Both the position numbers and the translations under genes were made by a program. From assembly GCA_043803405.1 (NCBI GenBank), contig JAZDKB010000033.1:1-41363 (forward strand): a DNA stretch of 41,363 nt, in the 5' to 3' direction. Origin of the DNA: Spirochaetota bacterium (lineage in GTDB: Bacteria; Spirochaetota; UBA4802; JAFGDQ01). Below are positions 23,595 through 41,363 of the stretch, one piece after another (position 1 is the stretch's first letter; the number at the start of each line of letters is the position of its first letter). The notes below the pieces were generated by a model. It worked only from the letters and a program-made list of their open reading frames with translations, searched no databases and was not told the origin of the DNA.

Positions 23595-23823
23595 AATATA
23601 CGGAAAGCAGATACATGATGCAAAATATAGTAGCCACAATGATGAGTAATGACATTAGACATTTATTTACAATTAATTCGATTGATTTCAAAAGATATAG
23701 AGAGATAAGGCTGATATAATTGTATTCAAAGGTAAATACCATGACGGCAATCAGGATAAACTTTCATGGATAGTGAATTCTAAATTTCTTAAAAATATAT
23801 AAATTACACTTAGTTAATCTTAA

Positions 23824-24951
23824 ATGGAAGTTAAGGTTTACAAAAGCATAACAGAGATTCCCGAACCAGATTGGGACAGCATTGTAGGCAGAAACCGCAT
23901 CATTTGCACCCACCGATTCCTTGAAGCAGTTGAAAAATCCAATATAAACGACTGTAAATATTATTATCCTGTGGTTTACGACAATAACAAGATTATTGCC
24001 CATGCATGCGCTTATTCAATAAGTATGGAGCTGGATATATTTGCGGAAGGGATAACAAAAAAAATTATTAATGTAATACGCAAGGTCTGGAAAAATTTTT
24101 TAATAATAAAACTTTTTGAATGCGGAACACCGATTGCATTGGGGAATACTATTTCTTTTGCAGATCAAATTGATAAAAAACAATACCTTCCGTTTATAAT
24201 TAAAGCAATTGAAGTAATTGCTAAAGAAAAAAAAATTAGTATAATTTTATTAAGGGATTTTAATAATAATGAATTATTTTTTTTTGACAATTTAATTAAT
24301 TTAGGATATGGAAGGACATTTAATTTACCAACTGCTCTTTTGCAAATAAAGTGGGATACTTTTGAAGATTATTTAAAAAGTATGCGTAAGCATTACAGAC
24401 AAAACATTCGTGCAAATAAAAAAAAATTTAAGGATAGCGGAATAGAAGTTCAACTTATAAATAGCTTTTCGCAATATTCGGTTGAATTTACAAAACTCTG
24501 GAAAAATTTATTTGATAATGCAAAGGAATACAGGCGTGAAATTTTAACTCCAGCTTTCTTCGAAAATATGGATAAATATCTTGGACAACAAAGCATGACT
24601 TTAGTCTTAAAAAAAGATGATAGATTAATTGCTTATATATTATTACTGTTTAATAATAATATATTAGTGCCTTTATTCGCTGGCCTGGATCATTTAATGA
24701 ATAAACAATATAAACTTTATTTTAATTTATTTTATAATGTGATTGAGATAGGAATTAGAGAAAAAATGAAATATATTGATTTCGGAATTACAACACTCGA
24801 ACCGAAAAAACAAATAGGCTGCGAAATAACAAATCTATATATGTATATGAAGCATTTGAATCCAATTATAAATATTCTAATGAATAAGATATTTAATATA
24901 TTCACTCCAAAGGTTAGATTATTATGTAAGAAAGTATTTAGGTTAAGCTAA
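23824..24951 (+). CDS. FemAB-like / GNAT-family N-acyltransferase
   Basis: SITEIPEPDWD..HRFLEAVE, WDTFEDYLKSMRKHYR, LYFNLFY and IDFGITT..PK..IG. Confidence 0.8.
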   Translation: MEVKVYKSITEIPEPDWDSIVGRNRIICTHRFLEAVEKSNINDCKYYYPVVYDNNKIIAHACAYSISMELDIFAEGITKKIINVIRKVWKNFLIIKLFECGTPIALGNTISFADQIDKKQYLPFIIKAIEVIAKEKKISIILLRDFNNNELFFFDNLINLGYGRTFNLPTALLQIKWDTFEDYLKSMRKHYRQNIRANKKKFKDSGIEVQLINSFSQYSVEFTKLWKNLFDNAKEYRREILTPAFFENMDKYLGQQSMTLVLKKDDRLIAYILLLFNNNILVPLFAGLDHLMNKQYKLYFNLFYNVIEIGIREKMKYIDFGITTLEPKKQIGCEITNLYMYMKHLNPIINILMNKIFNIFTPKVRLLCKKVFRLS

Positions 24952-25051
24952 TAATATCTATAATTAAGAACATTTATATTTGAAGAAAAATTCAATCTAT
25001 TCTTGTTGCATCAGTTATTTAAAAAACCATTCATTTATATAAAATTTTAAT

Positions 25052-26704
25052 ATGAATTTCGATCCGCAAAAAACTAAAATGGAAGCTAACGTTAGAGTAA
25101 TGCGTCATATTATAATTGCTTTTGAGAAAAAATATGGACGGAAAGAACTTATTAAATTTATTGAAAGGACTGGATTGCCGCTAGAATATTTTGATGATGA
25201 AAACAATTGGATTAGTCATAAATATTTAAGAGATTTACTAAAAGCCTTGGTTGACTATTCGGGAGACCCAAACATACCTTATAAATTTGGTTTAACTACT
25301 GCAACAAACCTAAGTTGGGGCGTTATTAAAACAATATTAAAATCTTTTAGTTCCTGTAGCTATGCATATAAGAAGGTTGTTTCATTAAGCCCAAGATGGG
25401 GGAAAGTTGCATCCTTAAAATATCTTAAGTTTAAGAAGAATAATGCAATTCTTAAAATAAGCATGCTTTATAATAACAAACAAGATAAATATAACTGTTT
25501 AAACATCCAGGGTCAATTAGCTTCCATTCCTACGATCTGGGGCCTTCCTCCGGCAGAAATAAAAGAACTACAATGCGCGGCAAAAGGCGCGGACTCGTGC
25601 ATTTATGAAATCAAATGGAAAAATGTACCGAAAAAAAAGAAAGGGCTTTATGCTTTTTTTGTTGGAGCAGCTATTTCCGGTTTTCTGTATTTACTTTCTT
25701 TAACAGGAATATTTGAACTGTCTCAGTTATCCGGATTGAATTTTTTCCTTCTGCCTGTAATTATTTTCCTGCTGTGGATAGCATCTTTAAAAAAAGAAAT
25801 AATTAAGGAAGGTTATAAAAAAACAGAAGAGCAAAATGATGAAATTGAAAAAATACTAATAGAAATAGAAAAATCCAATACTTATTTACAGGAAAAAGTA
25901 GAAGAAAAAGTCGCATCGCTTACGGAAAACATAGAAGACCTGAAAAAAAAGATAGCTTTTCAGCAAAGTAATGAGGACCAGTCAATTCGCACGGCAAAGA
26001 TGAACTCCATAGGCCAGCTTGCAGTGTATATGGCAAATGTGCTTAGAAAACCGCTGGATAAAATACACACCAATGTTCAGAGCCTGCTAAAAGATTTCTC
26101 AAACAATGAAGACGTAACAGACAGCCTTGAAGGAGCCGAAAGGGCAGCCCAAAGATGCGAAAAAATTATCGCTCATCTTTTATCTTTTTCGGAAAACGGA
26201 AGCAGTCCTCCTGTGCAGGAAGTCGACCTTAATATAATAATTAATGAATGCATAGCAAAGGCTAACGAAGAATTCGGCAATTCCGGTATAAAAATATCCA
26301 GCCAGGCGGAAAACGGCCTGCCGAAAGTAAAGGCGGATTATTCGGTAATTGAGCAGGTTCTTATGATAATAATTACGAACGCTGCGGACGCAATTCTGGA
26401 CGCAATGAATAAAGGCGATAAAGATGAAGGAAAAATTTTAATTAAAACCGGTTTAAAAAACACAGGCATGGCGCTTGTTGAGATTTCCGACAACGGATGC
26501 GGAATGCCGAAAGATGTAATGGCAAAAATATTCGATCCGTTCTTTTCCACAAAAACGTCCAGCAGAAAAAAGGGCATGGGCCTTACTTTAAGCTACAACG
26601 CAGTAAAAAAAGCAGGCGGGAGCATTGAAGTAAAAAGCGCTCCGGGCGCCGGAACAACATTCTCCATATATTTGCCTGTTATGGAAGCAATAAAAACAAA
26701 TTGA
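25052..26704 (+). CDS. membrane sensor kinase-like protein (HNOX/V4R-like N-terminus, 2 TM, coiled coil, degenerate HisKA, HATPase)
   Basis: ENNWIS and E-x-QCAAKGADSCIYEIKW (V4R-like), two hydrophobic helices, DNGCGM and FDPFFSTK. Confidence 0.85.
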   Translation: MNFDPQKTKMEANVRVMRHIIIAFEKKYGRKELIKFIERTGLPLEYFDDENNWISHKYLRDLLKALVDYSGDPNIPYKFGLTTATNLSWGVIKTILKSFSSCSYAYKKVVSLSPRWGKVASLKYLKFKKNNAILKISMLYNNKQDKYNCLNIQGQLASIPTIWGLPPAEIKELQCAAKGADSCIYEIKWKNVPKKKKGLYAFFVGAAISGFLYLLSLTGIFELSQLSGLNFFLLPVIIFLLWIASLKKEIIKEGYKKTEEQNDEIEKILIEIEKSNTYLQEKVEEKVASLTENIEDLKKKIAFQQSNEDQSIRTAKMNSIGQLAVYMANVLRKPLDKIHTNVQSLLKDFSNNEDVTDSLEGAERAAQRCEKIIAHLLSFSENGSSPPVQEVDLNIIINECIAKANEEFGNSGIKISSQAENGLPKVKADYSVIEQVLMIIITNAADAILDAMNKGDKDEGKILIKTGLKNTGMALVEISDNGCGMPKDVMAKIFDPFFSTKTSSRKKGMGLTLSYNAVKKAGGSIEVKSAPGAGTTFSIYLPVMEAIKTN

Positions 26705-26809
26705 ATCTCACTTCTCACGGAAATTTGTAATGGTTTATTGTAATTTAAAAAGTTTTGAGTGAGGGCAAGCAGCTCCTTATTCAAATTATATTTTCTTTAA
26801 AAGCAAACA

Positions 26810-28462
26810 ATGTTGATCAATCCTGAACATACTAAAATAGAGCTTAACACAAGGACGATTCGCCATATAGTAATAGCCTTTGAGAAGATGTATGGGAAAA
26901 AGGAATTAACTAGATTCTTTAATAAAACCGGACTGCCGGTTGAATATCTTACAGATGAAAACAACTGGATAAGCTATGATTATTTTATAAAGGTACTTAA
27001 TGATCTGGTTGAATATTCAGGTGATCCTGAGATAACATTTAAATTCGGCTTAACTACTGCTGCAAACTCAAGCTGGGGTATTATTAAAACAATACTAAAG
27101 TCATTTACTTCATGTACTTATGCGTATAAAAAAGTTATAACCTTAAACCCAAGATGGTCAAAAGCAGGAACATTTCAATTCGTTGAGTTTAAAAAAAATA
27201 AAGCAATAATTCAAATGAAAATAACTAAAGGTTATAAGCAAGACAAATACAATTGTTTGAGTATTCAGGGCCAGCTCGCTTCCATTCCCACAATCTGGGG
27301 GCTTCCGCCGGCGGAGATCAAAGAGACACAATGCTCAGCAGAAGGAGCGGACAGTTGCATATACGAACTAAGCTGGAAGAACCCGCCAAAGAAAAAAACA
27401 GGCCTGTATTCTTTTATAGCAGGAACAATACTATCCATCATACTCTATTTAACAACTCTGACAGGGAAGATAGACATATCCCGGTTCTCAGATCTAAATT
27501 ATATAATACTCCCTGTGCTTGTAATGCTTGGCAGCATAGCCATAGGCAAAAGAGCAATACTTAAAAGGAACTTCAAAAAGACGGAAGAATATAATAATGA
27601 GATAGAAAAAAATCTTATAGAAACAGAAAAGTCAAACGAGATACTGCAGGAAGGCGTGGAAAGAAAAGCGGCACAGCTTACAGGCAATATAGAAGACCTG
27701 AAACAGAAGATAGCTCATCAGAAAAAGAATGCTGATCAAATGCTGCGAAGTGAAAAGATGGACTCAGTAGGACGCATTGCAGTGAACATGGCAAACGCCC
27801 ACAGAAAGCTTCTGGATACTATACACGCAAATCTTGAGAGCCTGTTAAAAGACAGCAGAAACGATGAATCAGTATTGGACAGCCTTAAAGGCGCGCAAAG
27901 AGCGGCAAATAAATGCGAGGATATAATAGACCACCTGCTGTCTTTCCAGTCTGAGGAAAAGAGCATTGCAGCAGAAGAAATTGACCTTAACATAATACTT
28001 AACAATTGCATTGCAAAAGCACAAAAAGAATTTGCAGAATATAGATTTACAATATCCGGCAAACTAAAGAAGAATCTGCCTAAAGTAAAAGCAGACTATT
28101 CTTTAATAGAACAGGTATTCATGATAATAATATCGAACGGGGCAGACGCAATACTGGAAAGAGAGAAAGAGAGCAAAAAGAAAGCCAAAAAAGACGGAGA
28201 AATACTGATCAAAACTAGCTTAAAAGGCAGCATGGTTTGTACTGAAATATCGGATAACGGAACGGGAATGACTAAAGACACGCTGTTAAAGGTATTTGAC
28301 CCGTTCTTTACTACAAAGGCCACGAGCAGAAAAAGAGGTATGGGTCTTACGCTTAGCTATAATGCCGTAAAAAAAGCAGGCGGGTACATTGACGTGAAAA
28401 GCGCTCCAGGCACGGGAAGCACGTTCTTTGTGTATTTGCCTGCTACGGAAACAATAAAATAA
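26810..28462 (+). CDS. tandem paralogue of the preceding sensor kinase-like protein
   Basis: Same 550-aa length and architecture. Shares IQGQLASIPTIWGLPPAEIKE and GMGLTLSYNAVKKAGG. Confidence 0.85.
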   Translation: MLINPEHTKIELNTRTIRHIVIAFEKMYGKKELTRFFNKTGLPVEYLTDENNWISYDYFIKVLNDLVEYSGDPEITFKFGLTTAANSSWGIIKTILKSFTSCTYAYKKVITLNPRWSKAGTFQFVEFKKNKAIIQMKITKGYKQDKYNCLSIQGQLASIPTIWGLPPAEIKETQCSAEGADSCIYELSWKNPPKKKTGLYSFIAGTILSIILYLTTLTGKIDISRFSDLNYIILPVLVMLGSIAIGKRAILKRNFKKTEEYNNEIEKNLIETEKSNEILQEGVERKAAQLTGNIEDLKQKIAHQKKNADQMLRSEKMDSVGRIAVNMANAHRKLLDTIHANLESLLKDSRNDESVLDSLKGAQRAANKCEDIIDHLLSFQSEEKSIAAEEIDLNIILNNCIAKAQKEFAEYRFTISGKLKKNLPKVKADYSLIEQVFMIIISNGADAILEREKESKKKAKKDGEILIKTSLKGSMVCTEISDNGTGMTKDTLLKVFDPFFTTKATSRKRGMGLTLSYNAVKKAGGYIDVKSAPGTGSTFFVYLPATETIK

Positions 28463-28476
28463 ATATATATTGAAAT

Positions 28477-28878
28477 TTAATTACAATTTCCGGCGACTGT
28501 AACGCGCACGGCAGTTAGCGGCGTGCCTTGCAAAACAAACGTAGCCGTGTCATTATCGATGAATGTCCATGTGCCGGAATAGCTGTGGCCGCTCTCATCG
28601 ACGCTTAGTGTAGTTCCGTCAAATCTGTATGTTATCGGATCGTCGGCGTCAATGCAATAAACAGAATTCTCATAAGAGAGATCATACCCGCCGCCTTTTC
28701 CGTCAAAACTAACGCCGTCACTATACGTAGATGTGATCCACCAGTTTCCTTCAAGCTCAGCTTCGTGTCCCCCTGATTGGGACTGGCTGCTGCTATCGTC
28801 ATCTGACGAAGAACACGAAAAAGTGATCATCAGGATTGTTAAAGAAATAATAAGGAATATAATATTATTTTTTTTCAT
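28477..28878 (-). CDS. small lipoprotein
   Basis: MKKNN-hydrophobic-TFSC lipobox, Ser/Asp linker, and an LEGNW beta-rich domain. Confidence 0.75.
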   Translation of the reverse strand: MKKNNIIFLIISLTILMITFSCSSSDDDSSSQSQSGGHEAELEGNWWITSTYSDGVSFDGKGGGYDLSYENSVYCIDADDPITYRFDGTTLSVDESGHSYSGTWTFIDNDTATFVLQGTPLTAVRVTVAGNCN

Positions 28879-29001
28879 AAAGATATTTCCTGTTTCTTTT
28901 GAAATCATCTTTTGTTATTCCGTCAATACATTTATAGCTTCCCGGTTTTGTTTTAATGTTTGCACATAAGCACCCTTTTGTTTTTCTGTTTAATTTGAAC
29001 T

Positions 29002-29712
29002 TCAATTACTTGCGGCAGTATTGCTTTCATATTGGTCGTTTAGTCTGAACAGCACGCTGAGTTCAATAAAGGTTTCGTACTCTCTTCCTTTTATTTCTTC
29101 CCAGTATGTATTACGATCAATACCTGCATCTCCGGAATGATATTTGTATCTGAATCCTCCGTCAATGCCTAGAGATAATTTATAATCAAAATGTATATTG
29201 ATCCCTGCTATAAGTCCTATTGAGGCAAATGTTGTAGACAAATAATTACTATCCTCATCCGGATATGTTGATTCTGTTTTTACATCATATGTTCCGTCAA
29301 AAAATCCAAACCCGAACTGGGGGCCGGCCCAAATCCTGAACATTGGTGTGCGGATAAATCCAAAGCAGAAATTATTATATATAGAATATTCGTAGCCGTC
29401 AACATTCGGAATATCTGAATGATTATTATACATTTTTACTTTATTCACTCCGATTTGCAGCCTGTAATTAAATAGCCTGTCATTGGCAATGCCTGTATCG
29501 AATATGAATCCTGTGCCGATTTTGTATCCGTTTGAATTGAATCTGACGTCCGGTACCTGGTGATAGTAACTGTAGTATTCCGAGTTATATTCCCACTGGT
29601 AATAGCTGTAGGAACCTGTAACATATCCTCCCATCCCGATTGCTTTAACCGGCGATGATAATAACATGATGCTTGCTGCTGCAAATAACGCGAAAAATAG
29701 TTTGTTCCTCAT
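29002..29712 (-). CDS. outer-membrane beta-barrel protein
   Basis: Signal peptide ending VKA and alternating aromatic beta-strands. Start placed after RBS AGGAGG. Confidence 0.75.
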   Translation of the reverse strand: MRNKLFFALFAAASIMLLSSPVKAIGMGGYVTGSYSYYQWEYNSEYYSYYHQVPDVRFNSNGYKIGTGFIFDTGIANDRLFNYRLQIGVNKVKMYNNHSDIPNVDGYEYSIYNNFCFGFIRTPMFRIWAGPQFGFGFFDGTYDVKTESTYPDEDSNYLSTTFASIGLIAGINIHFDYKLSLGIDGGFRYKYHSGDAGIDRNTYWEEIKGREYETFIELSVLFRLNDQYESNTAASN

Positions 29713-29737
29713 AATAAAAAACCTCCTTTTGTTTTTC

Positions 29738-29771
29738 TGCACATAAGCAGCAAAAGGAGGCGAATCGTCAC
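29738..29771 (-). promoter_or_regulatory. conserved bipartite upstream element, copy A
   Basis: GTGACGATT-cgcctccttttgct-GCTTATGTGCA, 25 nt before ATG 29712. Confidence 0.75.
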
Positions 29772-29789
29772 AAAAAAAATTTAAAAAAA

Positions 29790-31538
29790 TTATTCGAATG
29801 TTAAAGCTATAAATGCCGGAGCCAATATACCTGTTTTTATTCCGAAGAAAGTTCTTATGGGGGCAATATTGCCGTTTGCAGTTCTCCTGTATACCGTGAC
29901 TGAGCTGCTTGAATTATTTGCATAAATCACGCTATTTGCCACAAAAATTTCGTTATTCACAGTATCTACTGCAACCCCCTTTGGATATGCAAGGCCCGTG
30001 TTTGCACCGGAGATGGTCCTTACCGGAGCCGCATTGCCGTTTGCTGTCCTTGAGTAAATCTTGATGGAGCTGTCAGATGACCAGTTTGCCACGATAATTT
30101 CGTTATTCACTGTGTCTATGGCTATGCCAACCGGAGATGAAATGCCAGTGCCTGTTCCTGAGATAGTTCTTACCGGTGTCACATTACCATTTGCCAGCCT
30201 ATTATACACTGTTACAGAGTTATTGTTATAATTTGTAATATAGATTTCATTATTTACCGTATCTATGGAAATCCCATTCGGCCTGTTTAGGCCCGTGCTG
30301 ATTCCGGAAATTATTCTCGTTGGTGTCACATCGCCGTTTGCTGTTCTCTCATATACCGTGACAGAATTGTTCCAGTAATTTACTATAAAAATTTCATTGT
30401 TCACTCTGTCTAAAGCTATTCCGTTTGGGTGTGAAATGCCGGTGTTTGTCCCGGAAATAGTCCTGATGGGCACATTTCCATCTGCTGTCTTATCGTAAAC
30501 TATGACGGAGTCATTATCAATATCTGTAATAAAAATTTCGTTATTCACAGTGTCTATGGCAATACCATACGGATATGAAAGGCCTGAGCTATCACTGGAG
30601 ATTATTCTAACTGGGGTCACATTCCCTGTTGCTGTTCTTGTGTAAACCGAAATGGAGCTATTGGAATTATTTGCCACAAAGATTTCATTATTGACCTTAT
30701 CAATGGCTATGCCTTCCGGTAATGAGATACCGGTATTTGCTCCGGAGATAGTCCTGGCTGGTGCTATATCGCCGTTTGCCGTCCTCCCATATACCGTGAC
30801 TGAGTGTCCCCAGTAATTTACTACCATAATTTCGTTATTCACTGTATCTATGTCTATATTGTATGCAAATGAAAGGCCCGTGCTTGTTCCGGAAATGGTC
30901 CTGTCCGGGGTAACGTCCCCGTCTGCCGTTCTAGGATAAACAGTAATGGAATCGTTACTTCTGTTAACCACCAGGATTTCATCATTCACTGTGTCAACAG
31001 CTATTCCATACGGATCATAAAGGCCGGTAGTTGCCCCATAAATAGTCCTGATCGGAGAAACGTCGCCGTTTGCTGTCCTTTCATAAACTATTATTGAGCT
31101 GTTACTTGTTACAAAAATTTCGTTATTAACTGTATCGATCGCTATGCCAGTTGGAAATATGAGGCCCGAATTCCATCCGCAAATGCTCCTTATTGGGGCA
31201 ATATTTCCGTTTGCAGTTCTTGTATAAACAGTAATAGAACTGCTGGACTCATTTGTCACAAATATTTCATTATTCACTGTGTCAATAGCTACTGAGGTTG
31301 GTTCTGACAAATGTGTAAGAGAACCAAAATTTTTCAAGGGCTCGATATTCCCGGTTTTAGATGCGTCAAATACGGATACATTGTGAAAAGCTGTATTGAC
31401 TACATAAAGCTCTTTTGCAGATGATCCGCCGCCGGAATTGTTATTATTACTGATGCTGTTGCTGCTGCTTCCTCCGCATTGGATAAAAACAAAAACAGCC
31501 AGTAAACAAGCTAAAAAAATTTTAAAATTTATTTTCAT
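29790..31538 (-). CDS. lipoprotein with NHL-like beta-propeller repeats
   Basis: FIQC lipobox and 10 repeats of about 49 aa, 'P.GIAIDTVNNEIFV.N...SITVY.RTANG'. Confidence 0.85.
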   Translation of the reverse strand: MKINFKIFLACLLAVFVFIQCGGSSSNSISNNNNSGGGSSAKELYVVNTAFHNVSVFDASKTGNIEPLKNFGSLTHLSEPTSVAIDTVNNEIFVTNESSSSITVYTRTANGNIAPIRSICGWNSGLIFPTGIAIDTVNNEIFVTSNSSIIVYERTANGDVSPIRTIYGATTGLYDPYGIAVDTVNDEILVVNRSNDSITVYPRTADGDVTPDRTISGTSTGLSFAYNIDIDTVNNEIMVVNYWGHSVTVYGRTANGDIAPARTISGANTGISLPEGIAIDKVNNEIFVANNSNSSISVYTRTATGNVTPVRIISSDSSGLSYPYGIAIDTVNNEIFITDIDNDSVIVYDKTADGNVPIRTISGTNTGISHPNGIALDRVNNEIFIVNYWNNSVTVYERTANGDVTPTRIISGISTGLNRPNGISIDTVNNEIYITNYNNNSVTVYNRLANGNVTPVRTISGTGTGISSPVGIAIDTVNNEIIVANWSSDSSIKIYSRTANGNAAPVRTISGANTGLAYPKGVAVDTVNNEIFVANSVIYANNSSSSVTVYRRTANGNIAPIRTFFGIKTGILAPAFIALTFE

Positions 31539-31567
31539 AAAAAAATTCCTCCTTGTTTTCTTTTTTC

Positions 31568-31601
31568 TGCACATAAGCAGCGTGAAGTGCTGAATCGTCA
31601 C
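31568..31601 (-). promoter_or_regulatory. conserved bipartite upstream element, copy B
   Basis: GTGACGATT-cagcacttcacgct-GCTTATGTGCA, 29 nt before ATG 31538. Confidence 0.75.
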
Positions 31602-31736
31602 AAAATTTTTTTGCGTTCATCCGAAAAATATTTTTCTGAATAATTCTTTCTTATTATTTCTTCTTTTAAGAGACCAATATATCCGTTACGATTTAGTGTA
31701 CTCATTTTATTTATCCTTAAATTTATTGATCTGCCG

Positions 31737-33602
31737 TTAGAATGTCGTAGCTAAAAAAGTAGGACCGCTTAATCCTGTTATTATTCTTTTTGGAGCAGCG
31801 TTACCGTCGTCCGTTCTCATATAAACTGTAATGGAGTTATTCTTTTTATTTACCACGAAAATCTCATTGTTCGCTGTATCTATTGTTATGCCGTATGGTA
31901 TTAAAAGGCCGGTGCTCGTCCCGGAAATTACTCTTTTCGGCGTAACACTGCCGTTATCCATTCTATTATATGCTTTAATGAAATTATTTTGATCAAGTAA
32001 ATTTGAGTCTGTTACAAAAATTTCGTTATTGATTGTATCTATAGTGATGCCGTAAGGAGAATTAAGATTGCCAGAAATTTCCCTTGCTGGAGTTACTTCA
32101 CCGTAATTCATTCTGCCAAAAACTTTGATGGATTTGGTTCCAAAATCTGTCACAAAAATTTCATTGTTTATTGTGTCGACTGCAATACCTATTGGCCATG
32201 AAAGGGTTGTAGCAGTTCCGGAGATAGCCCTTTTAGGGGCGATATCACCATTATCCATCCTTTCATAAACTGTGATGGAATTATTGCTGCGATTTGCCAC
32301 GAAAATTTCATTATTGACTACATCAACTGCTATACTCTGTGGATATGAAAGGCCGGTATTATCTCCGGAGATGATTCTTTTCGGTACTGCATCACCAGTG
32401 TCTGTTTTCCCGTACACTACGATGGAATTGTTTTTTATGTTTGTCATAAAAATTTCGTTATTCACATTATCAACTGCTATCCCATATGGGAATGAAAGGT
32501 TATAACTCGCGCCGGAAATATTTCTTTTTGGAGCAATATCATTTGTATCCTCCCTCCCATATACTGTGATGGAGTTGTTGTCATAATTTGCTACGAATAT
32601 CTCGTTATTAATTGTATCTACAGCCAAAGCGTCTGGTGATAGAAGATTTGTATGTGAACCTGTGATTGTCCTTTTAGGAATTGCATTATCGCTGTCTGTT
32701 ATCCCATAAACAGTGATGGAATTTATTGTGGAATTCATATCATGGTTTGTCACAATAATTTCGCCATTCACTGTATCTATGGCTATTCCATACGGTTTTA
32801 TTTGGCCAGTGCCCTCTCCCAGTATTTTTCTTTTAGGAACAGCAGTATCGCAGTCTGTTCTTCCATAAACCAGGATAATATTGTCGCCGCTGTTTATTAC
32901 GAATAACTCGTTATTGATAGTATCAACTGCTATACCATTCGGACTCTGAAAGCTGGTGCTTGTACCGGAAATTATCCTTTTCGGAGAAATGTCCCCGCTG
33001 TCAGTTCTTCCAAAGACTGTAATAGAACAAAGCCCATAACTTCCTCCATTTATTACAAAGATCTCATTATTAGTAGTATCAACTGCTATGGCGCATGCAT
33101 TGTAAGAACTGGTATTCGATTTAGAAATAGTTCTTTTTGGAGCCACATCGCCGTTATCTGTTCTTCCGTATACAGTAATGGAACTGGAGGCGTTTGATAC
33201 AAAAATCTCATTATTTACATTATCAATTGCAACACCAGTTGGATATGAAAGGGCTGTTTTTGTTCCAACAATTGCTCTTATTGGAGCAATATTGCCTGTA
33301 TCATCTCTTTTATATACAGTTATGGTGTTGCTATAGCCATTTGCTACAAAGATCTCGTTATTCACAGAATCTATGGAAACTGAATTCGGGTTTGTCAAAC
33401 ATGTAAGAGATCCAATAGTCTGCAGCGGCGCAGCACTTCCGGTTTGTGTCGCGTCATATAATGATATGCTTTGTGAAGTAGAGTTGACTACATAAATGCC
33501 TCTGAATGGTGTTGTTTGGTTTCCGCTTTTGCTTCCTCCGCATTGAATAAAAACAAAAATAGCGAGTAAACAAGCTGCAATAATTTTAAAATTTATTTTC
33601 AT
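31737..33602 (-). CDS. paralogous lipoprotein with NHL-like beta-propeller repeats
   Basis: MKINFK..FIQC lipobox and 11 'D..NNEIFV' repeats. Confidence 0.85.
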   Translation of the reverse strand: MKINFKIIAACLLAIFVFIQCGGSKSGNQTTPFRGIYVVNSTSQSISLYDATQTGSAAPLQTIGSLTCLTNPNSVSIDSVNNEIFVANGYSNTITVYKRDDTGNIAPIRAIVGTKTALSYPTGVAIDNVNNEIFVSNASSSITVYGRTDNGDVAPKRTISKSNTSSYNACAIAVDTTNNEIFVINGGSYGLCSITVFGRTDSGDISPKRIISGTSTSFQSPNGIAVDTINNELFVINSGDNIILVYGRTDCDTAVPKRKILGEGTGQIKPYGIAIDTVNGEIIVTNHDMNSTINSITVYGITDSDNAIPKRTITGSHTNLLSPDALAVDTINNEIFVANYDNNSITVYGREDTNDIAPKRNISGASYNLSFPYGIAVDNVNNEIFMTNIKNNSIVVYGKTDTGDAVPKRIISGDNTGLSYPQSIAVDVVNNEIFVANRSNNSITVYERMDNGDIAPKRAISGTATTLSWPIGIAVDTINNEIFVTDFGTKSIKVFGRMNYGEVTPAREISGNLNSPYGITIDTINNEIFVTDSNLLDQNNFIKAYNRMDNGSVTPKRVISGTSTGLLIPYGITIDTANNEIFVVNKKNNSITVYMRTDDGNAAPKRIITGLSGPTFLATTF

Positions 33603-33631
33603 AAAAACATTTCTCCTTGTTTTCTTTTTTC

Positions 33632-33665
33632 TGCACATAAGCATCCCGAAGCGCCAAATCGTCAC
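33632..33665 (-). promoter_or_regulatory. conserved bipartite upstream element, copy C
   Basis: GTGACGATT-tggcgcttcgggat-GCTTATGTGCA, 29 nt before ATG 33602. Confidence 0.75.
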
Positions 33666-33705
33666 AAAAAATTATTGTCCAAACAATTGCCAACACATTA
33701 ATTTG

Positions 33706-34932
33706 TTAATGTGTAAATACTACAATAGATGTCATTAGATATATACTAGTCCCAGTCCCAGGGTTGATGTCTTTAACCATAACAGTGCCAGCATCAGTGC
33801 CGTCAGTTTTCCATAGTTCGCCGCCATGACTGCCGTCATTGGCAATAAAGTAAACTGCACTGTTGAATACAGTAAATCTATAGGGGTTGCTAACTCCTGT
33901 GATATTAATATCTTTCAGCATAACAGTGCCAGCATCAGTTCCGTCGGTTTTCCATAGTTCAATTCCGTGAGTACCATCATCGGCATGAAAGTAAAGGGCG
34001 CTGTTGAATACTGTAAATCCATTAGGGCTGCTACTTCCTGTGATATTGATATCTTTAACCATAACAGTGCCCGCTTCATTTCCATCTGTTTTCCATAGTT
34101 CACTGCCGTTTTCGCCATCATCAGCTACAAAGTAAAGAGTGTCATCTAATATGGTAAATCCTCCAGAAGCGATGTCTTTTAACATAACAGTGCCGGTTTC
34201 AGTGCCGTCAGTTTTCCAGAGTTCATAACCGTTGGTTTCATCATAGGCTGAAAAAAAAAGAGCACCATTGAATACACTAAATCCACCGACATGGCTATCC
34301 CCCGTAATATTGATGTCTTTTAACATAACAGTGCCAGCATCAGTACCGTCAGTTTTCCATAGTTCGTAGCCATGTGTGCCGTCATTTGCACTAAAGAAAA
34401 GTTCGCCGTTGAATACAGTAAATCCACCAGGATAACTATCCCCTGTGATATTGATATCTTTAACCATAACAGTGCCAGCTTCAGTGCCATCGGTTTTCCA
34501 GAGTTCAACGCCAAGTGCGCCGTCATTTGCTTGAAAGTAAAGAGCACCGTTGAATACAATAAATCCACCGGGATAGCTATTCCCAGTGATATTGATATCT
34601 TTAACCATAACAGTGCCAGCATCAGTGCCGTCAGTTTTCCATAGTTCACGGCCGTGCGTACCGTCATTAGCATTAAAATAAAGAGCACTGTTGAATACTG
34701 TAAATCCACAAGGATAGCTGTCTCCAGTGATATTGATATCTTTAACCATAACAGTGCCGACATCAGTGCCGTCAGTTTTCCATAACTCATAGCCATGTTC
34801 TCCATCAGTTGCGCTAAAATATGCGAAACTGGTTGCACTTGATGAATTATTACTTTTACTGCCGCCGCATCCCGCGAGCGCAATTACTGCTATTATCATT
34901 ACCATAATTGCAGTTTTAATCTGGTTTTTCAT
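33706..34932 (-). CDS. ELWxxDGT-repeat lipoprotein
   Basis: LAGC lipobox and 8 ELWKTDG repeats of about 47 aa. Confidence 0.9.
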   Translation of the reverse strand: MKNQIKTAIMVMIIAVIALAGCGGSKSNNSSSATSFAYFSATDGEHGYELWKTDGTDVGTVMVKDINITGDSYPCGFTVFNSALYFNANDGTHGRELWKTDGTDAGTVMVKDINITGNSYPGGFIVFNGALYFQANDGALGVELWKTDGTEAGTVMVKDINITGDSYPGGFTVFNGELFFSANDGTHGYELWKTDGTDAGTVMLKDINITGDSHVGGFSVFNGALFFSAYDETNGYELWKTDGTETGTVMLKDIASGGFTILDDTLYFVADDGENGSELWKTDGNEAGTVMVKDINITGSSSPNGFTVFNSALYFHADDGTHGIELWKTDGTDAGTVMLKDINITGVSNPYRFTVFNSAVYFIANDGSHGGELWKTDGTDAGTVMVKDINPGTGTSIYLMTSIVVFTH

Positions 34933-34960
34933 ATTATTCCTCCTTTTGTTTTCTTTTTTC

Positions 34961-34994
34961 TGCACATAAGCAGCGGAAGAAGGCAAATCGTCAC
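34961..34994 (-). promoter_or_regulatory. conserved bipartite upstream element, copy D
   Basis: GTGACGATT-tgccttcttccgct-GCTTATGTGCA, 28 nt before ATG 34932. Confidence 0.75.
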
Positions 34995-35069
34995 AAAAAA
35001 AATTTGAAATTTCTTGAATCCTTATCCTTTTCGAATTCATTTTTGGTTATTAAAGGATAGGGTAGGTAT

Positions 35070-35101
35070 AGTTCTCCCCGCAGCAGGCTGCGGAGAGAAC
35101 T
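35070..35101 (-). terminator. GC-rich hairpin (terminator or REP-like) after the 48-aa-repeat gene
   Basis: AGTTCTCCCCGCAGC-ag-GCTGCGGAGAGAACT. The single mismatch is a G-U pair on the minus strand. Confidence 0.55.
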
Positions 35102-35124
35102 TAATAAAGCAGAATATCAATAAG

Positions 35125-37102
35125 TTATTTTTCCAGTTCTGCAAAATATGACCATGGTTTGTTATTTATGTTTGTAAATCTTCCCCCCTGCATATACAGT
35201 ACTTCCGCAAACTACAATGGTAAAGACAGAATTATTAGCATTCGGATCCCAGGAAGTAGCATTACCTGTTATTGCGTCAAGTGCTGCAAAATAATTCCTT
35301 GTCTGTCCTCCTATGCTAGTAAAAAATCCTCCTGCATATACAGTGCTGCCGCTTACAGCAATAGTATAGACAATATCATTAGCATTCGGGTTCCAGGAAG
35401 CAGCATTGCCTGCTGTCGCGTCAATAGCTGCAATATAATTCCTTGTCTGTCCTCCTATGCTTGTAAAATATCCTCCTGCATACACAGTGCTGCCGCTTAC
35501 AGCAATAGTATAGACAATATCATTAGCATTCGGGTTCCAAGAAGTTGCATTACCTGTTGCTGTATCAAGTGCTGCTATACAATTCCTTGTCTGTCCCCCT
35601 ATGCTTGAAAAGCCTCCCCCTGCATACACAGTATTTCCGCTTACTGCAAGGGTACAGACAGAATTACTAGCATTCGGGTTCCAGGAAGTAGCCTTGCCAG
35701 TTGCTGCGTCAATAGCTGCAATATAATTTCTTGTCTCTCCTCCTATGCTTGTAAAGCCTCCCCCTGCATACACAGTAGTTCCGCTTACTGCAAGGATTAT
35801 AACAAGACTATTAGCATTCGGATCCCAGGAAGTAACATTGCCTGTTGCCGCGTCAATAGCTGCAATATGATTTCTTGTATCACCTCCTATGCTTGTAAAA
35901 TCTCCTCCTGCATAAACAGTACTTCCGCTTACAGCAAGGGTAAAGACACCACCATTAGCACTCGGGTTCCATGAAGTAGCCTTGCCAGTTATCGAGTCAA
36001 TTGCCGCTATATAATTCCTTGTATCATTTCCTATGCTTGTAAAATCTCCTCCTGCATAAACAGTACTTCCGCTTACAGCAAGGGTAAAGACACCACCATT
36101 AGCATTCGGGTTCCAGGAAGTAACATTGCCTGTTACTGCGTCAATAGCTGCAATACGATTTCTTGTCTCTCCTCCTATGCTTGTAAAATCTCCTCCTGCA
36201 TACACAGTATTTCCGCTTACTGCAAGGGTACAGACAGAATTACTAGCATTCGGGTTCCAGGAAGTAGCATTACCTGTTGCTGCATCAAGGGCTGCTATAC
36301 CATTCCTTGTTTCTCCACCTATGCTTGAAAATGCACCTCCTGCATACACAGTACTTTCGCTTGCTGCAAGGGTCATGATAGGATCACTAGCATTCGGGTT
36401 CCAGTCTGTAGCATTGCCTGTTGCCGCGTCAAGTGCTGCAATATAATTCCTTGTCTGTCCTCCTATGTTTGAAAACCATCCCCCTGCATACACAGTATTT
36501 TCGCTTACTGCAAGGGTAAAGACAGTATTACTAGCATTCGCATCCCAGGAAGTAGCATTACCTGTTGCCGCGTCAAGTGCTGCAATATAATTCCTTGTCT
36601 GTCCTCCTATGTTTGAAAACCATCCACCTGCATACACAGTACTTTCACTAACTGCAAGGGTATTGACTTGTTCATTAGCATTAGGGTCCCATGCTGCGTC
36701 AACAGATCCATTGGCCAATATATGGGCAATATTATTCCTTGCGTAATCCCCTGCATAGGTAAACCATCCGCCTATATACCAGCCCCCTTTCCCGTCCGGC
36801 GCTGTAGCATAAATCTCGCCGGATATCATTGGGAATGCTGATGCCTTTTGCCCTGTAACAGTATCTATCGGTACTCCGCTTCCTGTTACAGGCCCAACAT
36901 ATGTAAACTCACCGCCTATGTATATTGTGCCGTCAGGTCCGATTGCTGTTGCCCATACAGTGCCGTTTGTGATATATCTTGCTTTTTCAGAGTTGCTTCC
37001 CCCACCAGTATTTGAGCTGTTCTCGCTGCTTCCTCCGCATCCCGCGAGCGCAACTGCTGCTATTATCATTACCATAATTGCAGTTTTAATCTGGTTTTTC
37101 AT
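35125..37102 (-). CDS. lipoprotein with 48-aa 'VYAGGxFTSIGG' beta-propeller repeats, with a frameshift near the C-terminus
   Basis: LAGC lipobox, 11 VYAGG repeats and 2 YIGG repeats. The ORF as written stops at 35162, but the repeat continues in another frame to 35125. Confidence 0.85.
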
Positions 37103-37128
37103 AATTAACCTCCGAATTATTTAATGTT

Positions 37129-37162
37129 TGCACATAAGCAGCTAAAAACCGTGAATCGTCAC
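37129..37162 (-). promoter_or_regulatory. conserved bipartite upstream element, copy E
   Basis: GTGACGATT-cacggtttttagct-GCTTATGTGCA, 26 nt before ATG 37102. Confidence 0.75.
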
Positions 37163-37588
37163 AAAAAATTATTAAAAATTTGTAAAATATTTTATGTTTT
37201 ATGCATTATAAAAAATATGGATAACTACGACGTGGATAACAAAGAAGTTTAAAAGTTTATATATAAAGTATAAAGCTGGGGTATTAAGCCGCCGGAAAAA
37301 TCGGCGGTATTGTATTCAATTTAAATAGCATAAATTATTTTCTTATGATAACGTTATTTTTATAAATTCCGAACAAAGATTTATTGTCGTTTTTCGCTCC
37401 CAGAAAAGACAATTTAGCAACTCTACTATATATTTAATAACGTTCCAGAAGCGTATCAGATTTTGTCATCTGATAAGAATGCGACTGAGTAGATTCAAGC
37501 AATAACTAATCCTCTCAACTGCCTATTAACTTGCCTTGAGACCTTACTCTTTAATGTTTTTTGCCTTTTCTCCACTAGAATTTATCAA

Positions 37589-38863
37589 TTATAATTCCTG
37601 CTGATTTTTTTCCCTGCTATCCCTATCAATAATCTTCAGCATTCCGAAACATACACTTTGTTCACCATCAACTACCATTCTAATACAATATTTGCAGTTG
37701 TCTTCTTCTTTAGAAACAAACGAACCTATCTTGACGTCATTTACAAAGTAAGAATAATTATTACCTCTTACTTCGACCTTTAAACGTTGAAATTTATCCG
37801 AATTAATATTTGTCTTTGGATTATTAGTCCATGGAATCATGATCGAATCAATTTTATTATTTATTAATTTATATGCCTTTGCGCCGCCATTCCTGGAAAT
37901 TAAAAAATTATATTTATTTAATCTGTCAGAACCGGCAAGAGAAAAGCCAAACCCCTGATCCTTTATACCCGACTTCCAAATAGCATCACATATAATATCG
38001 TAATTTTTTTTTCTTTCAAGGCTTGGGTCTAGCCAGTGGTGAGCAGAAATGATATCATCTTTAAAATTATCAATATTAAAACCAAATTGATTAATATACA
38101 TTTTATAATTATTAAAATTGCCGTCAGGCCAGCCATATCCCTTTTCAAATGTCTCCAAATAAAATGGTTCCGGCTCCATACTCTTACCGATAGAAGAAAG
38201 CAAGTCAGCTGATTCTTTCCGCACTCTTTTAATTCTATCATTAGCAGCAAGCCACTGTAGAATGTTTACAGTATCACTGCTTATTTGATGCTTAACCTTT
38301 GTTAGTTCTGTAATAGCCTTAATCCGTGTGCCTGAATCAGTATCAATCAACGCATCCTGTAAACAGCTAACTATTTTTTCATTTAAAAATTTATTCGTAT
38401 TATTTTCCGATAAAACAGGTATTGGATGAGTACCTACTGTTGTGAATATATAATATGTTAAATAAGTAATCGTTGTTGTTGATTTTAGATAATAATTAGT
38501 ATCAGTAGAAGATGATGCTGATACATATATAGGTTGGATAGTTACACAACTAGTCATATCCTGCAATACATTCACGGAGATATTTTTTATATAATCTTTA
38601 TGCATAAAAATGAATTCATATTTTCCGGGAGCTTTGGCAATCCTGTATTCCTGTTTGCCTATTGCATCTTCTACTTCCTTAATCTCATTGTTGTTATCAA
38701 TCCTGTAAATATTAAAACGATTCAAATTACAGTAAAACGAAATATATCCCTTAGGACTGTTTTGCCCAATATCATCTTTTATATAAACCGAGCTGCACGA
38801 GATTATTGTTATAAAAATTAATGTTACCATTAAATATATTGAACCGCTAAATTTCTTTTTCAT
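37589..38863 (-). CDS. multidomain lipoprotein (beta domain, HEAT-like repeats, lectin-like beta-sandwich)
   Basis: IISC lipobox, DALIDTDSGTRIKAI (HEAT-like) and RLKVEVRGNNYSYFVND (ConA-like). Confidence 0.7.
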   Translation of the reverse strand: MKKKFSGSIYLMVTLIFITIISCSSVYIKDDIGQNSPKGYISFYCNLNRFNIYRIDNNNEIKEVEDAIGKQEYRIAKAPGKYEFIFMHKDYIKNISVNVLQDMTSCVTIQPIYVSASSSTDTNYYLKSTTTITYLTYYIFTTVGTHPIPVLSENNTNKFLNEKIVSCLQDALIDTDSGTRIKAITELTKVKHQISSDTVNILQWLAANDRIKRVRKESADLLSSIGKSMEPEPFYLETFEKGYGWPDGNFNNYKMYINQFGFNIDNFKDDIISAHHWLDPSLERKKNYDIICDAIWKSGIKDQGFGFSLAGSDRLNKYNFLISRNGGAKAYKLINNKIDSIMIPWTNNPKTNINSDKFQRLKVEVRGNNYSYFVNDVKIGSFVSKEEDNCKYCIRMVVDGEQSVCFGMLKIIDRDSREKNQQEL

Positions 38864-38881
38864 AAAGATTGTCCTCTATAT

Positions 38882-39292
38882 TTATTCCATATTTTTTGAA
38901 TTTATTGATTTTGTATGATTATCAATAACTGATATATAAAATTGTATTTTATTATTATTAAGTTTATAAGTTAATGAATAATTTTTCCCAGGTTCAAAAT
39001 TATAAACGAGTTTAATGGGGTCAGACCATGCAGTATCAAAAAGGAACATGCATATAAAGAAATGTTCACCAGGGCCAAACTCAACTGAATGATTAGTACT
39101 GAAATTTTTCCATTCTACATATTCTAAATAGGTGTCGAAATGAAATATGGAAACTCGTCTTGGTAAATATAATTTGACTTTTTTTTCAACAGGAAGATCT
39201 TTCGGTCCGTAATATCCGTGAAACTCACTTTGAGTAGATTGACAGCAGATAAAAAATAATAATAAAAATATTAAATAATGTATTTTTTTCAT
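38882..39292 (-). CDS. small putative lipoprotein
   Basis: MKK-hydrophobic-CC signal, with FGPGEH and FEPGKNY motifs. Confidence 0.7.
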   Translation of the reverse strand: MKKIHYLIFLLLFFICCQSTQSEFHGYYGPKDLPVEKKVKLYLPRRVSIFHFDTYLEYVEWKNFSTNHSVEFGPGEHFFICMFLFDTAWSDPIKLVYNFEPGKNYSLTYKLNNNKIQFYISVIDNHTKSINSKNME

Positions 39293-39365
39293 ATAAAGTT
39301 ACTTCCCTTATTTATATAAATATGTCAGCAAAGTTTTAAAATTAACAATATCCTTCCCGGTTATC

Positions 39366-40028
39366 TTAATGCGCATCTAAAAGAAGCTTATCTTTTTCGA
39401 TATCAGTATAGAGATTTCTTATCATGTTTCTCAGTGTATTAAAATGTACTCTCTCATTCTCAACAGAAAACCATGTTCCCCAATCCGCCTCTGGCCCAAC
39501 AAATGCTGGTAATACGAAAATGCCACCCCATAAGCTGGTATAATCATAGTATTGATAAGATTTTAATTCATTGCCTTTGGAATCATTTAGGGTTGCAGTT
39601 ATGTAGTAATCATTTTGCATTCTCATGGGAATTATGCCAAGTGTAAGTATACATAATGTCATACTTGTAATTACACCTGCAGAAATATGCGGATGCCTAT
39701 ACATCTTAATCATAATGCTATAATCCATTTGTTTATTCCTGGTTTGGTCGGTCGTGTATTTGCTGAACATCTGGGATTCTTTTGTGGTCTTTTCTATGAT
39801 TTCAATTAATTGCAAACTTTCTTCATCATAAGCGATTTTAAAATCAGCATATCTCCTGATTTTTATGTCTAAATATACTGATGGTTTTTTTGTAAAAGCG
39901 GATTTATCCGCGAACTGATTTACCGTGTGTAATTGTTTTCCAGGATAAACAGCACAATTGAAAAATACAGGGAAAGCCAATATTGCAATTATGCTGAATA
40001 AAAGTCGTTTTATCTTTAATTGTTTCAT
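39366..40028 (-). CDS. putative lipoprotein
   Basis: FFNC lipobox, internal hydrophobic LTLGIIP segment, RBS GAGG. Confidence 0.75.
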   Translation of the reverse strand: MKQLKIKRLLFSIIAILAFPVFFNCAVYPGKQLHTVNQFADKSAFTKKPSVYLDIKIRRYADFKIAYDEESLQLIEIIEKTTKESQMFSKYTTDQTRNKQMDYSIMIKMYRHPHISAGVITSMTLCILTLGIIPMRMQNDYYITATLNDSKGNELKSYQYYDYTSLWGGIFVLPAFVGPEADWGTWFSVENERVHFNTLRNMIRNLYTDIEKDKLLLDAH

Positions 40029-40185
40029 CTCAATTAACCTCTTGTTTCTTTGAAATAATGAAATTGCTTATTTAGTTATATATGAAAGCATCCTGTAATG
40101 CTAAATCGCCCAAAAAAAATCGACACTATCTATTTTTATAAATAAAATCTCAAAAGATAAATTTTAGATTAGAGGTATGTTTTTT

Positions 40186-40683
40186 TTATTCTTTTTTACG
40201 ATGCATAATAAATTTTATCCCGTCATTTTCATTTCTTGTTAATATCCTGTAGTTATACGCACCTGCAAATGTATCATCATCTTTTCTTTTCATTACTACG
40301 GTATAGAATTGATCGCCGCCATAAGTTCTCCTTCTTTGTATTGCACTTAAAAGGCCACTGTTTGATGTGCTTTCTAATATATTTCTTGCTGCATTACTTA
40401 AAGGGACTAAAATGTAAATCATGTCCCCGCTGATTCTGCCTATACATTCATTGCCTCCTAAACTGCCTTTAATATCCACTTTATCCTGTTTAAATTCGCT
40501 TTCTCCCCATACGTCATCGTTCCATATACCTTCTGATTTTACCCTGGGATCCGGTGGATTTTTCTTACTCGAAAGCCAGTCATAGAATTCATAAGTTTCC
40601 AATTGCGGGGTTTGTGTTCCGGCACACGATATAGTTAAAAATGCAATGCATAGAATAATGAAAATATTTGATTTATTTAGCAT
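40186..40683 (-). CDS. putative lipoprotein
   Basis: TISC lipobox, RBS AGGAGG. Confidence 0.75.
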   Translation of the reverse strand: MLNKSNIFIILCIAFLTISCAGTQTPQLETYEFYDWLSSKKNPPDPRVKSEGIWNDDVWGESEFKQDKVDIKGSLGGNECIGRISGDMIYILVPLSNAARNILESTSNSGLLSAIQRRRTYGGDQFYTVVMKRKDDDTFAGAYNYRILTRNENDGIKFIMHRKKE

Positions 40684-40713
40684 AATAAATGGCCTCCTTT
40701 GATTTTTAATTTC

Positions 40714-40747
40714 TGCACATAAGCATCCCGAAGCGCCAAATCGTCAC
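40714..40747 (-). promoter_or_regulatory. conserved bipartite upstream element, copy F
   Basis: GTGACGATT-tggcgcttcgggat-GCTTATGTGCA, 30 nt before ATG 40683. Identical to copy C. Confidence 0.75.
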
Positions 40748-40971: not shown

Positions 40972-41202
40972 ATGATTATTTGTGAAGTTATAATGATTAT
41001 TTGAGAACTTATAATCATTATTTTGCAAGTTATGATGATAACTTATGAAGTTATAGTCATAAGTTGTGAACTTATAGTCATAACTTGTGAAGTTGTAATC
41101 ATAACTTGGCAAGTTATAAGGATAACTTATGAACTTATGATCATAAGTTGTGAACTTATAATGATTATTTGTGAAGTTATGGTCATTATTTTACAAAATA
41201 TC
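40972..41202. repeat. 21-bp degenerate tandem repeat, about 11 units
   Basis: Units such as atgattatttgtgaagttata, atgataacttatgaagttata and gtcataagttgtgaacttata. Confidence 0.85.
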
Positions 41203-41223
41203 CTAATTCCGGGGGAGAAAATG

Positions 41224-41363
41224 GAGAGTGTAAAAAAGATTGTGTAAACAGCCATAGAATAAATAATTGAAGACAGAGGAGAAGAAAATGGCTGAAGGAA
41301 AAGAAATAGTAGAAGAACTGTTAAAGCAGATAGATTTTAAGAATTTAACAGTAAATCAGATAA
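41224..41363 (+). mobile_element. IS256-family insertion sequence, left end and transposase start (ATG 41288, truncated)
   Basis: GAGAGTGTAAAAAAGATTGTGTAAACAG terminal repeat and MAEGKEIVEELLKQIDFKNLTVNQI. Inverted copy of 1-139. Confidence 0.8.

Follow-up and report, generated by a model that had tools for sequence, protein, structure and literature searches.

A repeated two-block element ahead of surface-protein genes as the probable promoter of an order-restricted ECF sigma factor family in spirochaetes

The stretch of DNA analyzed here (the window) is a 41,363-nucleotide contig of a Spirochaetota bacterium (GenBank assembly GCA_043803405.1, contig JAZDKB010000033.1) that carries an array of genes for predicted surface proteins, most of them headed by the same bipartite element, in which two short conserved blocks flank a spacer of fixed length. 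This raises the question of what the element does. A preliminary description had proposed either that it marks an envelope regulon of an uncharacterized extracytoplasmic function (ECF) sigma factor or that it is the junction site of an integron-like cassette array. Our analysis supports the first proposal and identifies a candidate sigma family: the element is very probably the promoter of an order-restricted, apparently unclassified ECF sigma group, and is likely to be read mainly by the paralogue encoded on contig C30 of the same genome. The window itself encodes no sigma factor, as had been stated; it is, however, a single contig (C33, of 54) of a 3.98-Mb assembly, cut at both sides at the ends of insertion sequences (IS). 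The assembly under study is labeled G000, and G001 and following labels and L-numbers denote genomes and loci of relatives.

The element and a family of ECF sigma factors

All six copies of the element reported before were recovered on the minus strand (Table 1), with both blocks invariant and a spacer of 14 nucleotides, whereas none of 100 shuffled sequences contained a match. No further copy was found in the window when up to 3 mismatches were allowed, which agrees with the earlier observation that the half of the window with housekeeping genes is free of the element. The T-tract upstream of every copy and the ATG 25 to 30 nucleotides downstream were also confirmed, and each copy is accompanied by a Shine-Dalgarno-like stretch. 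Every headed gene had been described as exported; using our own heuristic for lipoprotein-type and cleavable-type signals, on which all export calls given here are based, 5 of the 6 products carry a lipoprotein-type signal and 1 a cleavable-type signal. Domain calls support the earlier labels of 2 NHL propellers, an ELWxxDGT protein and a third propeller (DUF5122), but not the label of outer membrane protein, since the product concerned belongs to no Pfam or NCBIfam family.

Whether a copy precedes an ECF sigma/anti-sigma operon had been proposed as a check, and this is the case for a sigma gene on C30 and for most close homologues elsewhere. The genome contains 19 sigma-70 region-2 matches, 8 of which form one family (43% to 64% identical to the C30 protein), the other 11 being outside it. 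The C30 sigma factor has 170 residues, matches PF04542 over the cut-off, PF08281 weakly (17.2 bits, under the cut-off) and TIGR02937 with 46 bits (cut-off 42.9), and gives a structure model with a predicted local distance difference test value (pLDDT) of 90.7, the best fold and sequence matches of which are ECF sigma factors. It thus has the two-domain (sigma2 plus sigma4) composition of this class and falls within its usual length of about 170 to 200 residues; all eight paralogues measure about 170 residues. The sigma factor has an invariant linker motif and a recognition helix unlike the usual ECF pattern. The family was detected in 35 of the 60 relatives sampled. Sampling across the phylum gave full-length matches of at least 139 bits in 29 of the 45 genomes that belong to this order and no more than 61 bits in any of the 255 others, and the family was thus found only in this uncultured order. 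Phage contigs yielded only distant generic sigma factors with 23% to 45% identity over short or weak stretches. All titled host records of family loci but one are spirochaetes; the family member at L108 lies on a contig titled as an archaeal metagenome-assembled genome (MAG), which was probably mis-binned. The paralogue on C7 (C7:52030-52560, L030) has no ATG, GTG or TTG start and shows an in-frame ATT a few bases after a strong Shine-Dalgarno stretch, and CTG or TTG seems to serve as the start in several homologues.

The site upstream of the C30 sigma gene differs by 1 base from the left block of the array, with the spacing and the first six right-block bases unchanged. Homologues were scored with a matrix trained on the six window copies only (at least 8 bits, within 90 nucleotides upstream). 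With a spacer of 14, a site was present in 12 of the 18 homologues that are at least 53% identical, against 1 to 3 of 18 at spacers 11 to 13 and 15 to 17, 1.1% of shuffles and 28 of 1919 open reading frames (ORFs) of the genome itself. A conserved two-block site in front of the sigma gene is the arrangement of an autoregulated sigma factor. In a quick tree, the C30, C19, C7 and C27 paralogues fall in a 13-member clade (support 97), in 12 members of which the right-block hexamer lies upstream.

The right block also covaries with the sigma factor. When the test base was excluded from scoring, a usable site remained at 38 of the 69 loci, 26 of which have G or A at the first base of the right block. 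Residue 60 in region 2.4 and this base combined as Ala-G in 13 loci, Thr-A in 10, Ala-A in 2 and Thr-G in 1, and one joint switch of residue and base is nested in the Ala clade. In an alignment to SigR, residues 60 and 63 take the places of the Ile and the Asn of the usual ECF helix; we take these to be I77 and N80 of RpoE. Todor et al. (bioRxiv 2020.06.23.168245) cite those RpoE residues as reading position -11 and report that one of the two likely start positions carries a pyrimidine-purine step. In this register, the left block would span -34 to -26 and, with the T that precedes it, form the -35 element, with the T-tract as a putative UP element. The first G of the right block would lie at about -11 and its closing CA on a likely start position, so that transcription would begin at the last A of the block or one base after it and leaders would measure 25 to 30 nucleotides.

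The predicted anti-sigma partner and the sigma-headed island

The gene that follows the sigma gene probably encodes its regulator. Its ATG overlaps the sigma stop codon in all 8 paralogues of the genome, and 6 of the 8 products show a hydropathy peak; among 62 loci of relatives, 57 have a +1 gene that overlaps or directly adjoins the sigma stop, and 51 show a hydrophobic stretch between residues 40 and 100 of its product. The +1 proteins share an N-terminal part of approximately 70 residues and the hydrophobic stretch, and differ in their periplasmic parts. No meaningful Pfam match (N-terminal 100 residues of 52 members) and no PDB sequence match was found for the N-terminus. A complex of the sigma factor with the partner N-terminus was modeled with a score of 0.77 in three runs (best control 0.01), which agree in at least 96% of contacts, with a partner pLDDT of 86; the mark set for this score was reached by 116 of 157 solved pairs and by 2 of 215 mismatched pairs. 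Gene overlap, hydropathy and the modeled complex together predict that the +1 membrane protein is a membrane-anchored anti-sigma factor that binds the sigma factor. The partner of the C18 paralogue has a periplasmic part that looks FecR-like by eye. We propose that the first 70 or so residues of the anti-sigma factor would hold the sigma factor until a periplasmic signal frees it, presumably by proteolysis as in other ECF systems, and that the freed sigma factor would activate the operon that encodes it, all units of the island described below and a second array on C36, resulting in a coordinated output of surface propeller lipoproteins.

The location of the sigma operon relative to the window was deduced from the contig ends. 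C33 terminates on both sides in the left end of an IS256-like element. The 8-base flank on its right, when reverse-complemented, matches the flank at the start of C30 at every base (8/8). Four other IS ends pair likewise and four flanks stay unpaired. Because the flanks match as an IS256 target-site duplication, the right end of C33 should adjoin C30, which places the sigma operon approximately 10 kb upstream of the window on the same strand. The sigma/anti-sigma operon is therefore likely to head the island to which the window array belongs. The order on one strand would be sigma, anti-sigma, a CsgG-like gene, RCC1 and Ig/FGE-sulfatase lipoproteins, two element copies flanking a HEPN/MntA-type pair, an ELWxxDGT protein, the IS and then the window array.

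Outside the window, the genome contains at least 8 further copies. These include one more exact copy, the seventh, on C30, another on C30 with a 15-nucleotide spacer, and three close ones that belong to the second array on C36. A matrix trained on ten copies found 23 sites genome-wide at 14 bits or more, the weakest of which are probably noise, and one of these directly precedes the C30 sigma gene (C30:8501-9013). Among the ORFs behind matrix sites, 15 of 19 look exported, compared with 706 of 2297 background ORFs, with 10 of the 23 sites being the training set itself. At 17 bits, 24 sites have a spacer of 14, against 1 to 14 at other spacers. On C44 (C44:19403-19608), two A-type copies with identical spacers face outwards approximately 130 bp apart, before divergent lipoprotein-like genes, and resemble an inverted duplication. 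On C7 (C7:30000-43700), a lengthy series of lipoprotein-like genes, in which two weaker copies of the element occur 14 to 18 kb from the C7 sigma gene, is possibly a third array.

In other genomes, the element was found upstream of a conserved gene of 125 to 133 residues in 5 loci (L085:3914-4312, L084:10209-10583, L086:3974-4348, L083 and L065). This gene lies near sigma genes, and its product looks cytoplasmic and belongs to no family; it was not found in the genome under study, and Pfam and Atlas searches gave no lead for its product. In G058 it is truncated by a nucleotidyltransferase/HEPN-like pair. In G003, an element match precedes a gene for an LVIVD-repeat lipoprotein. Across metagenome contigs, the strict pattern matched no stretch, and an 18-base core gave 24 matches, 2 of them directly before a gene of this sigma family.

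Several observations weigh against the assignment of the element to this sigma family and to its C30 member. The site occurs in 6 of the 44 homologues below 53% identity, the match fading with distance, and the covariation comes from 26 of the 69 loci, with kinship inflating its p-value of 1.7e-4. The Ala-type helix of the C30 protein is shared by the C7 and C27 paralogues, so that sequence alone does not single out C30. The score of the modeled complex may reflect likeness to solved ECF/anti-sigma pairs, and the join of C33 to C30 is deduced from the duplication, not from read-through. In the 12-kb sigma flanks of relatives, scanned at a loose threshold of 13 bits, spacer 14 is not enriched (19 sites against 7 to 18 at other spacers). 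The exact 20-base form is present in none of 60 relatives and a looser pattern in 6 of 121, with 1 to 2 copies each against 14 in the genome under study, the sites of relatives being more degenerate and thus liable to be under-counted by the loose pattern. Of the metagenome core matches, 22 of 24 are not tied to this sigma family, and many look like chance. Finally, the ATG of the C30 sigma gene and of those at L035, L127 and L149 follows the sixth right-block base at a distance of only 0 to 3 nucleotides, too near for a normal leader. A leaderless transcript is just possible for the C30 gene; at the other three loci the transcript would miss the start codon, yielding anti-sigma factor and effectors without sigma factor.

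This overlap with the start codon, which occurs in four loci, would fit a repressor site, and the genome has 11 other sigma-70-family proteins, so that the element might be the operator of another regulator, or the promoter of a different sigma factor, with the ECF genes merely co-regulated targets. We consider this very unlikely. The site is non-palindromic, consists of two blocks and has ECF-type spacing, and its base change follows a residue in the very helix with which the sigma factor would read the -10 region. The other sigma genes whose upstream DNA was inspected by eye do not show the element, and sigma-70 consensus sites are neither enriched in the array (57 observed, 51.4 +/- 6.2 expected) nor coincident with the element.

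Growth of the array and other features of the window

If the element is the promoter of this ECF sigma group, the array remains to be accounted for, and sequence identities between its units point to its history. The copies at 33632 and 40714 have identical spacers (14/14) ahead of unrelated genes, and the genes headed by the copies at 34961 and 37129 are identical at 64 of 66 signal-peptide bases while their bodies are unrelated and their spacers different. The half copy before the last gene joins pieces of two other heads: the 15 nucleotides before it reproduce the end of copy 6 with its leader, and it lies within a 21-nucleotide stretch identical to copy 2 and its leader. Shared spacers and signal peptides before unrelated bodies, together with the half copy, indicate that the heads were shuffled. 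The array has thus probably grown by copying and recombination of heads, each consisting of promoter, leader and signal peptide, onto different gene bodies, without a dedicated enzyme. The 14 copies found here compared with the 1 to 2 in a few relatives, and the lack of an array at this locus in three relatives, make this expansion look lineage-specific.

Table 1. Array genes, element copies and contig end in the window
Feature	Position	Strand	Remarks
Element copy 1	40714..40747	-	Putative -35 block, 14-nt spacer, putative -10 block and start region; T-tract directly upstream
Element copy 2	37129..37162	-	
Element copy 3	34961..34994	-	
Element copy 4	33632..33665	-	
Element copy 5	31568..31601	-	
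Element copy 6	29738..29771	-	
Half copy, right block only	28961..28971	-	Heads last gene of array
165-aa predicted lipoprotein, no family	40186..40683	-	Headed by copy 1
220-aa protein, lipoprotein-like N-terminus (by sequence)	39366..40028	-	Without element
136-aa protein, lipoprotein-like N-terminus (by sequence)	38882..39292	-	Without element
424-aa protein, lipoprotein-like N-terminus	37589..38863	-	Weak HEAT match below cut-off; without element
646-aa DUF5122 beta-propeller lipoprotein	35162..37102	-	144-bp repeats; headed by copy 2
408-aa ELWxxDGT-repeat lipoprotein	33706..34932	-	TIGR04534, 530 bits; headed by copy 3
621-aa NHL beta-propeller lipoprotein	31737..33602	-	Headed by copy 4
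582-aa NHL beta-propeller lipoprotein	29790..31538	-	Headed by copy 5
236-aa exported protein, no family	29002..29712	-	Headed by copy 6
143-aa protein, last gene, lipoprotein-like N-terminus	28477..28908	-	Weak lipocalin match below cut-off; half copy upstream
8-bp target-site duplication (41216-41223) and IS256-like left end	41216..41363	.	

This shuffling of heads preserves a weaker form of the second proposal of the preliminary description. In its full form, the proposal holds that the element is a site-specific recombination site that builds an integron-like cassette array, promoter activity being secondary. The units are indeed arranged head-to-tail, with heads mixed among unrelated bodies and a half copy that resembles a junction scar. 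HEPN/MntA-type pairs lie between two copies on C30 and in G058, and the genome encodes an integron integrase on C9 (453 bits, cut-off 265). Gene order, the comparison of which had been suggested, is not syntenic in three relatives, where the kinase genes left of the array run into other genes without the array. The element itself lacks the properties of such a site: only 4 to 8 of its 34 bases are self-complementary, unlike the attC sites of integrons, which are imperfect palindromes that form a hairpin on the bottom strand, its DNA folds no better than shuffles (z -1.43 to +0.64) and its spacer sequence varies between copies. It stands singly before sigma genes elsewhere, where it tracks the sigma residue. 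None of the five tyrosine recombinases of the genome is encoded on C30, C33 or C36 (serine recombinases were not searched for). The C9 integrase is followed by repeated sites of approximately 130 nucleotides with attC-type ends by eye; the one site that was correctly delimited forms a long stem when folded, at a z of only -1.1, and an automatic attC search gave no match at these sites, their attC-like character being a by-eye reading. We therefore give a cassette junction site very little credit. A single DNA read run, with thin cover of 12 of 30 bins, listed no joint and contained one low-depth bridging record (35407 to 28252) off the element, and bears on neither model. The C9 region (C9:269625-282264) consists of the integrase followed by co-oriented genes with attC-like sites, beside one of which lies an ORF that resembles by eye a group II intron reverse transcriptase (C9:277583-279034).

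The same identities between units might suggest that the copies are passive remnants of recent duplications of 5' ends without selected function, since spacers, leaders and signal peptides are near-identical between some units and this genome alone shows the large copy number; a structured RNA leader would be a related explanation. We regard both as hardly credible. The blocks are fixed while spacers fall to identities of 6 to 8 of 14, and in other genera orthologous genes still have the element in front of them. An Rfam scan for a structured RNA leader returned 3 matches, all to miRNA models far under the gathering score, and no stable DNA fold was found. The element as the promoter of the ECF sigma group, copied together with its heads, accordingly remains the reading that we favor. 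A bolder version of it, which we think improbable, is that the head is a working capture module: recombination between heads, requiring no dedicated recombinase, would continually swap new surface-protein bodies into exported, ECF-controlled arrays, the eight sigma factors of a new group would split the arrays among themselves by a one-base -10 code, and in some lineages overlap of the promoter with the sigma start would yield inhibitor and effectors without sigma factor.

Within the array, the two NHL propellers are 47% identical to each other, and the stop codon of the shorter one lies 18 nucleotides before the next element copy. The only homologue found for the 236-residue protein is a paralogue on C36, which is also headed by the element. 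Three genes across 37589-40028 have no element copy. To the right of the array, a 21-bp unit is repeated in tandem approximately 10 times (40972-41191), with kindred repeats at C6:47177-47351 and C26:10178-10361; the IS256-like element is inserted beside this repeat and separates it from a 160-residue ORF on C30. To the left, GC content falls to 28% at 24001-26000, and the block at 22254-28462, which by eye contains aminotransferase-like and GNAT-like genes and two paralogous histidine-kinase-like genes, is kept in G001, G004 and G006. Inverted repeats with arms of 32 bp (100%) and 41 bp (85%) lie at 2504-2643 and 5137-5326, amid sulfur-metabolism-like genes.

Relation to known ECF systems and integrons

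The block pair appears in none of the group descriptions in the part of the 2021 ECF classification available to us (Casas-Pastor et al. 2021, PMC7826278), including all 12 mentions of Spirochaetes. The preliminary description had recognized no consensus in the element, which holds in that no group motif in those descriptions matches it, and needs to be qualified for a partial likeness of both blocks to ECF22. This group, the closest promoter pair found there, is autoregulated and described with -35 TGTGATTTT and -10 GCGAAT(C/A)AT; the start of the left block is similar and the first two bases of the right block are the same. ECF22 differs in several bases of both blocks, in taxa (mostly Bacteroidetes and Proteobacteria, with no Spirochaetes listed) and in its anti-sigma factors, which usually are DUF2207 proteins with four helices. 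DUF2207 was not found in the N-terminal 100 residues of 52 +1 proteins or in the full C30 protein. According to the same text, ECF118, ECF41 and ECF103 have similar or identical -35 hexamers, and differ from the present system in their -10 elements (GAAAACC/AACC, CGTC and TCT, respectively), taxa and regulators (zinc finger, SnoaL extension and DUF4179).

The groups described there from the same phylum are ECF208, ECF229, ECF242, ECF246, ECF16s14, ECF25s3 and ECF252s5. ECF208 has a single-pass anti-sigma factor without Pfam domain, as predicted here. ECF208, ECF229, ECF242 and ECF246 come from Leptospira or Turneriella, and their promoters are given as not conserved, not extracted or different; for ECF208, ECF229 and ECF242 the promoter is not conserved or has ATTC at -35, whereas the present site is conserved and different. 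Leptospira ECF groups are also treated in PMC12655853, in the available text of which host and promoter differ from ours. In a species-wide, pattern-limited scan, none of 46 loci was titled Leptospira or Turneriella, some MAG titles being uncultured Leptospiraceae or Leptospirales. The anti-sigma factors of ECF16 and ECF252 are described with six or two helices (PMC7826278). For ECF25, the motif printed there, given for s1/s2 only, is GGAAC/GTC and differs from the element, and its anti-sigma factors are zinc-binding or contain DUF4384 or DUF4349, domains that were not found in the +1 proteins. In a literature search that left subscription journals mostly outside, no description of this system was found. 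The sigma family is therefore probably unclassified, being set apart from the ECF groups by their descriptions in the accessible text of PMC7826278.

For a group seemingly absent from the available text of that classification and from cultured spirochaetes, our analysis supplies a candidate promoter and regulon, a predicted anti-sigma domain without family and a covariation between residue and base, and the sigma/anti-sigma pair could extend the ECF toolbox by a further orthogonal switch. An island that is probably headed by a sigma operon, with a promoter copy for each surface-protein gene and with apparently exchanged heads, is a clear example of fast regulon expansion. Integron attC arrays are alike in that variable genes stand head-to-tail behind a repeated element, with toxin-antitoxin pairs interspersed; here, the repeat lies at the 5' end, is promoter-like, forms no hairpin and has no attC-type ends, and no integrase is encoded on the contigs concerned. 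The underlying mechanism is ordinary ECF biology. RpoE/RseA, SigW/RsiW and AlgU/MucA, of the group 4 ECF factors, likewise combine a small two-domain sigma factor, a co-translated single-pass membrane protein encoded at +1 with an N-terminal part that binds the sigma factor, an upstream two-block site of fixed spacing and envelope targets. The present system differs from them in the anti-sigma N-terminus without family, the invariant linker motif and unusual recognition helix of the sigma factor, the presence of eight paralogues in one genome, and the array in which each tandem target gene has a promoter copy of its own.

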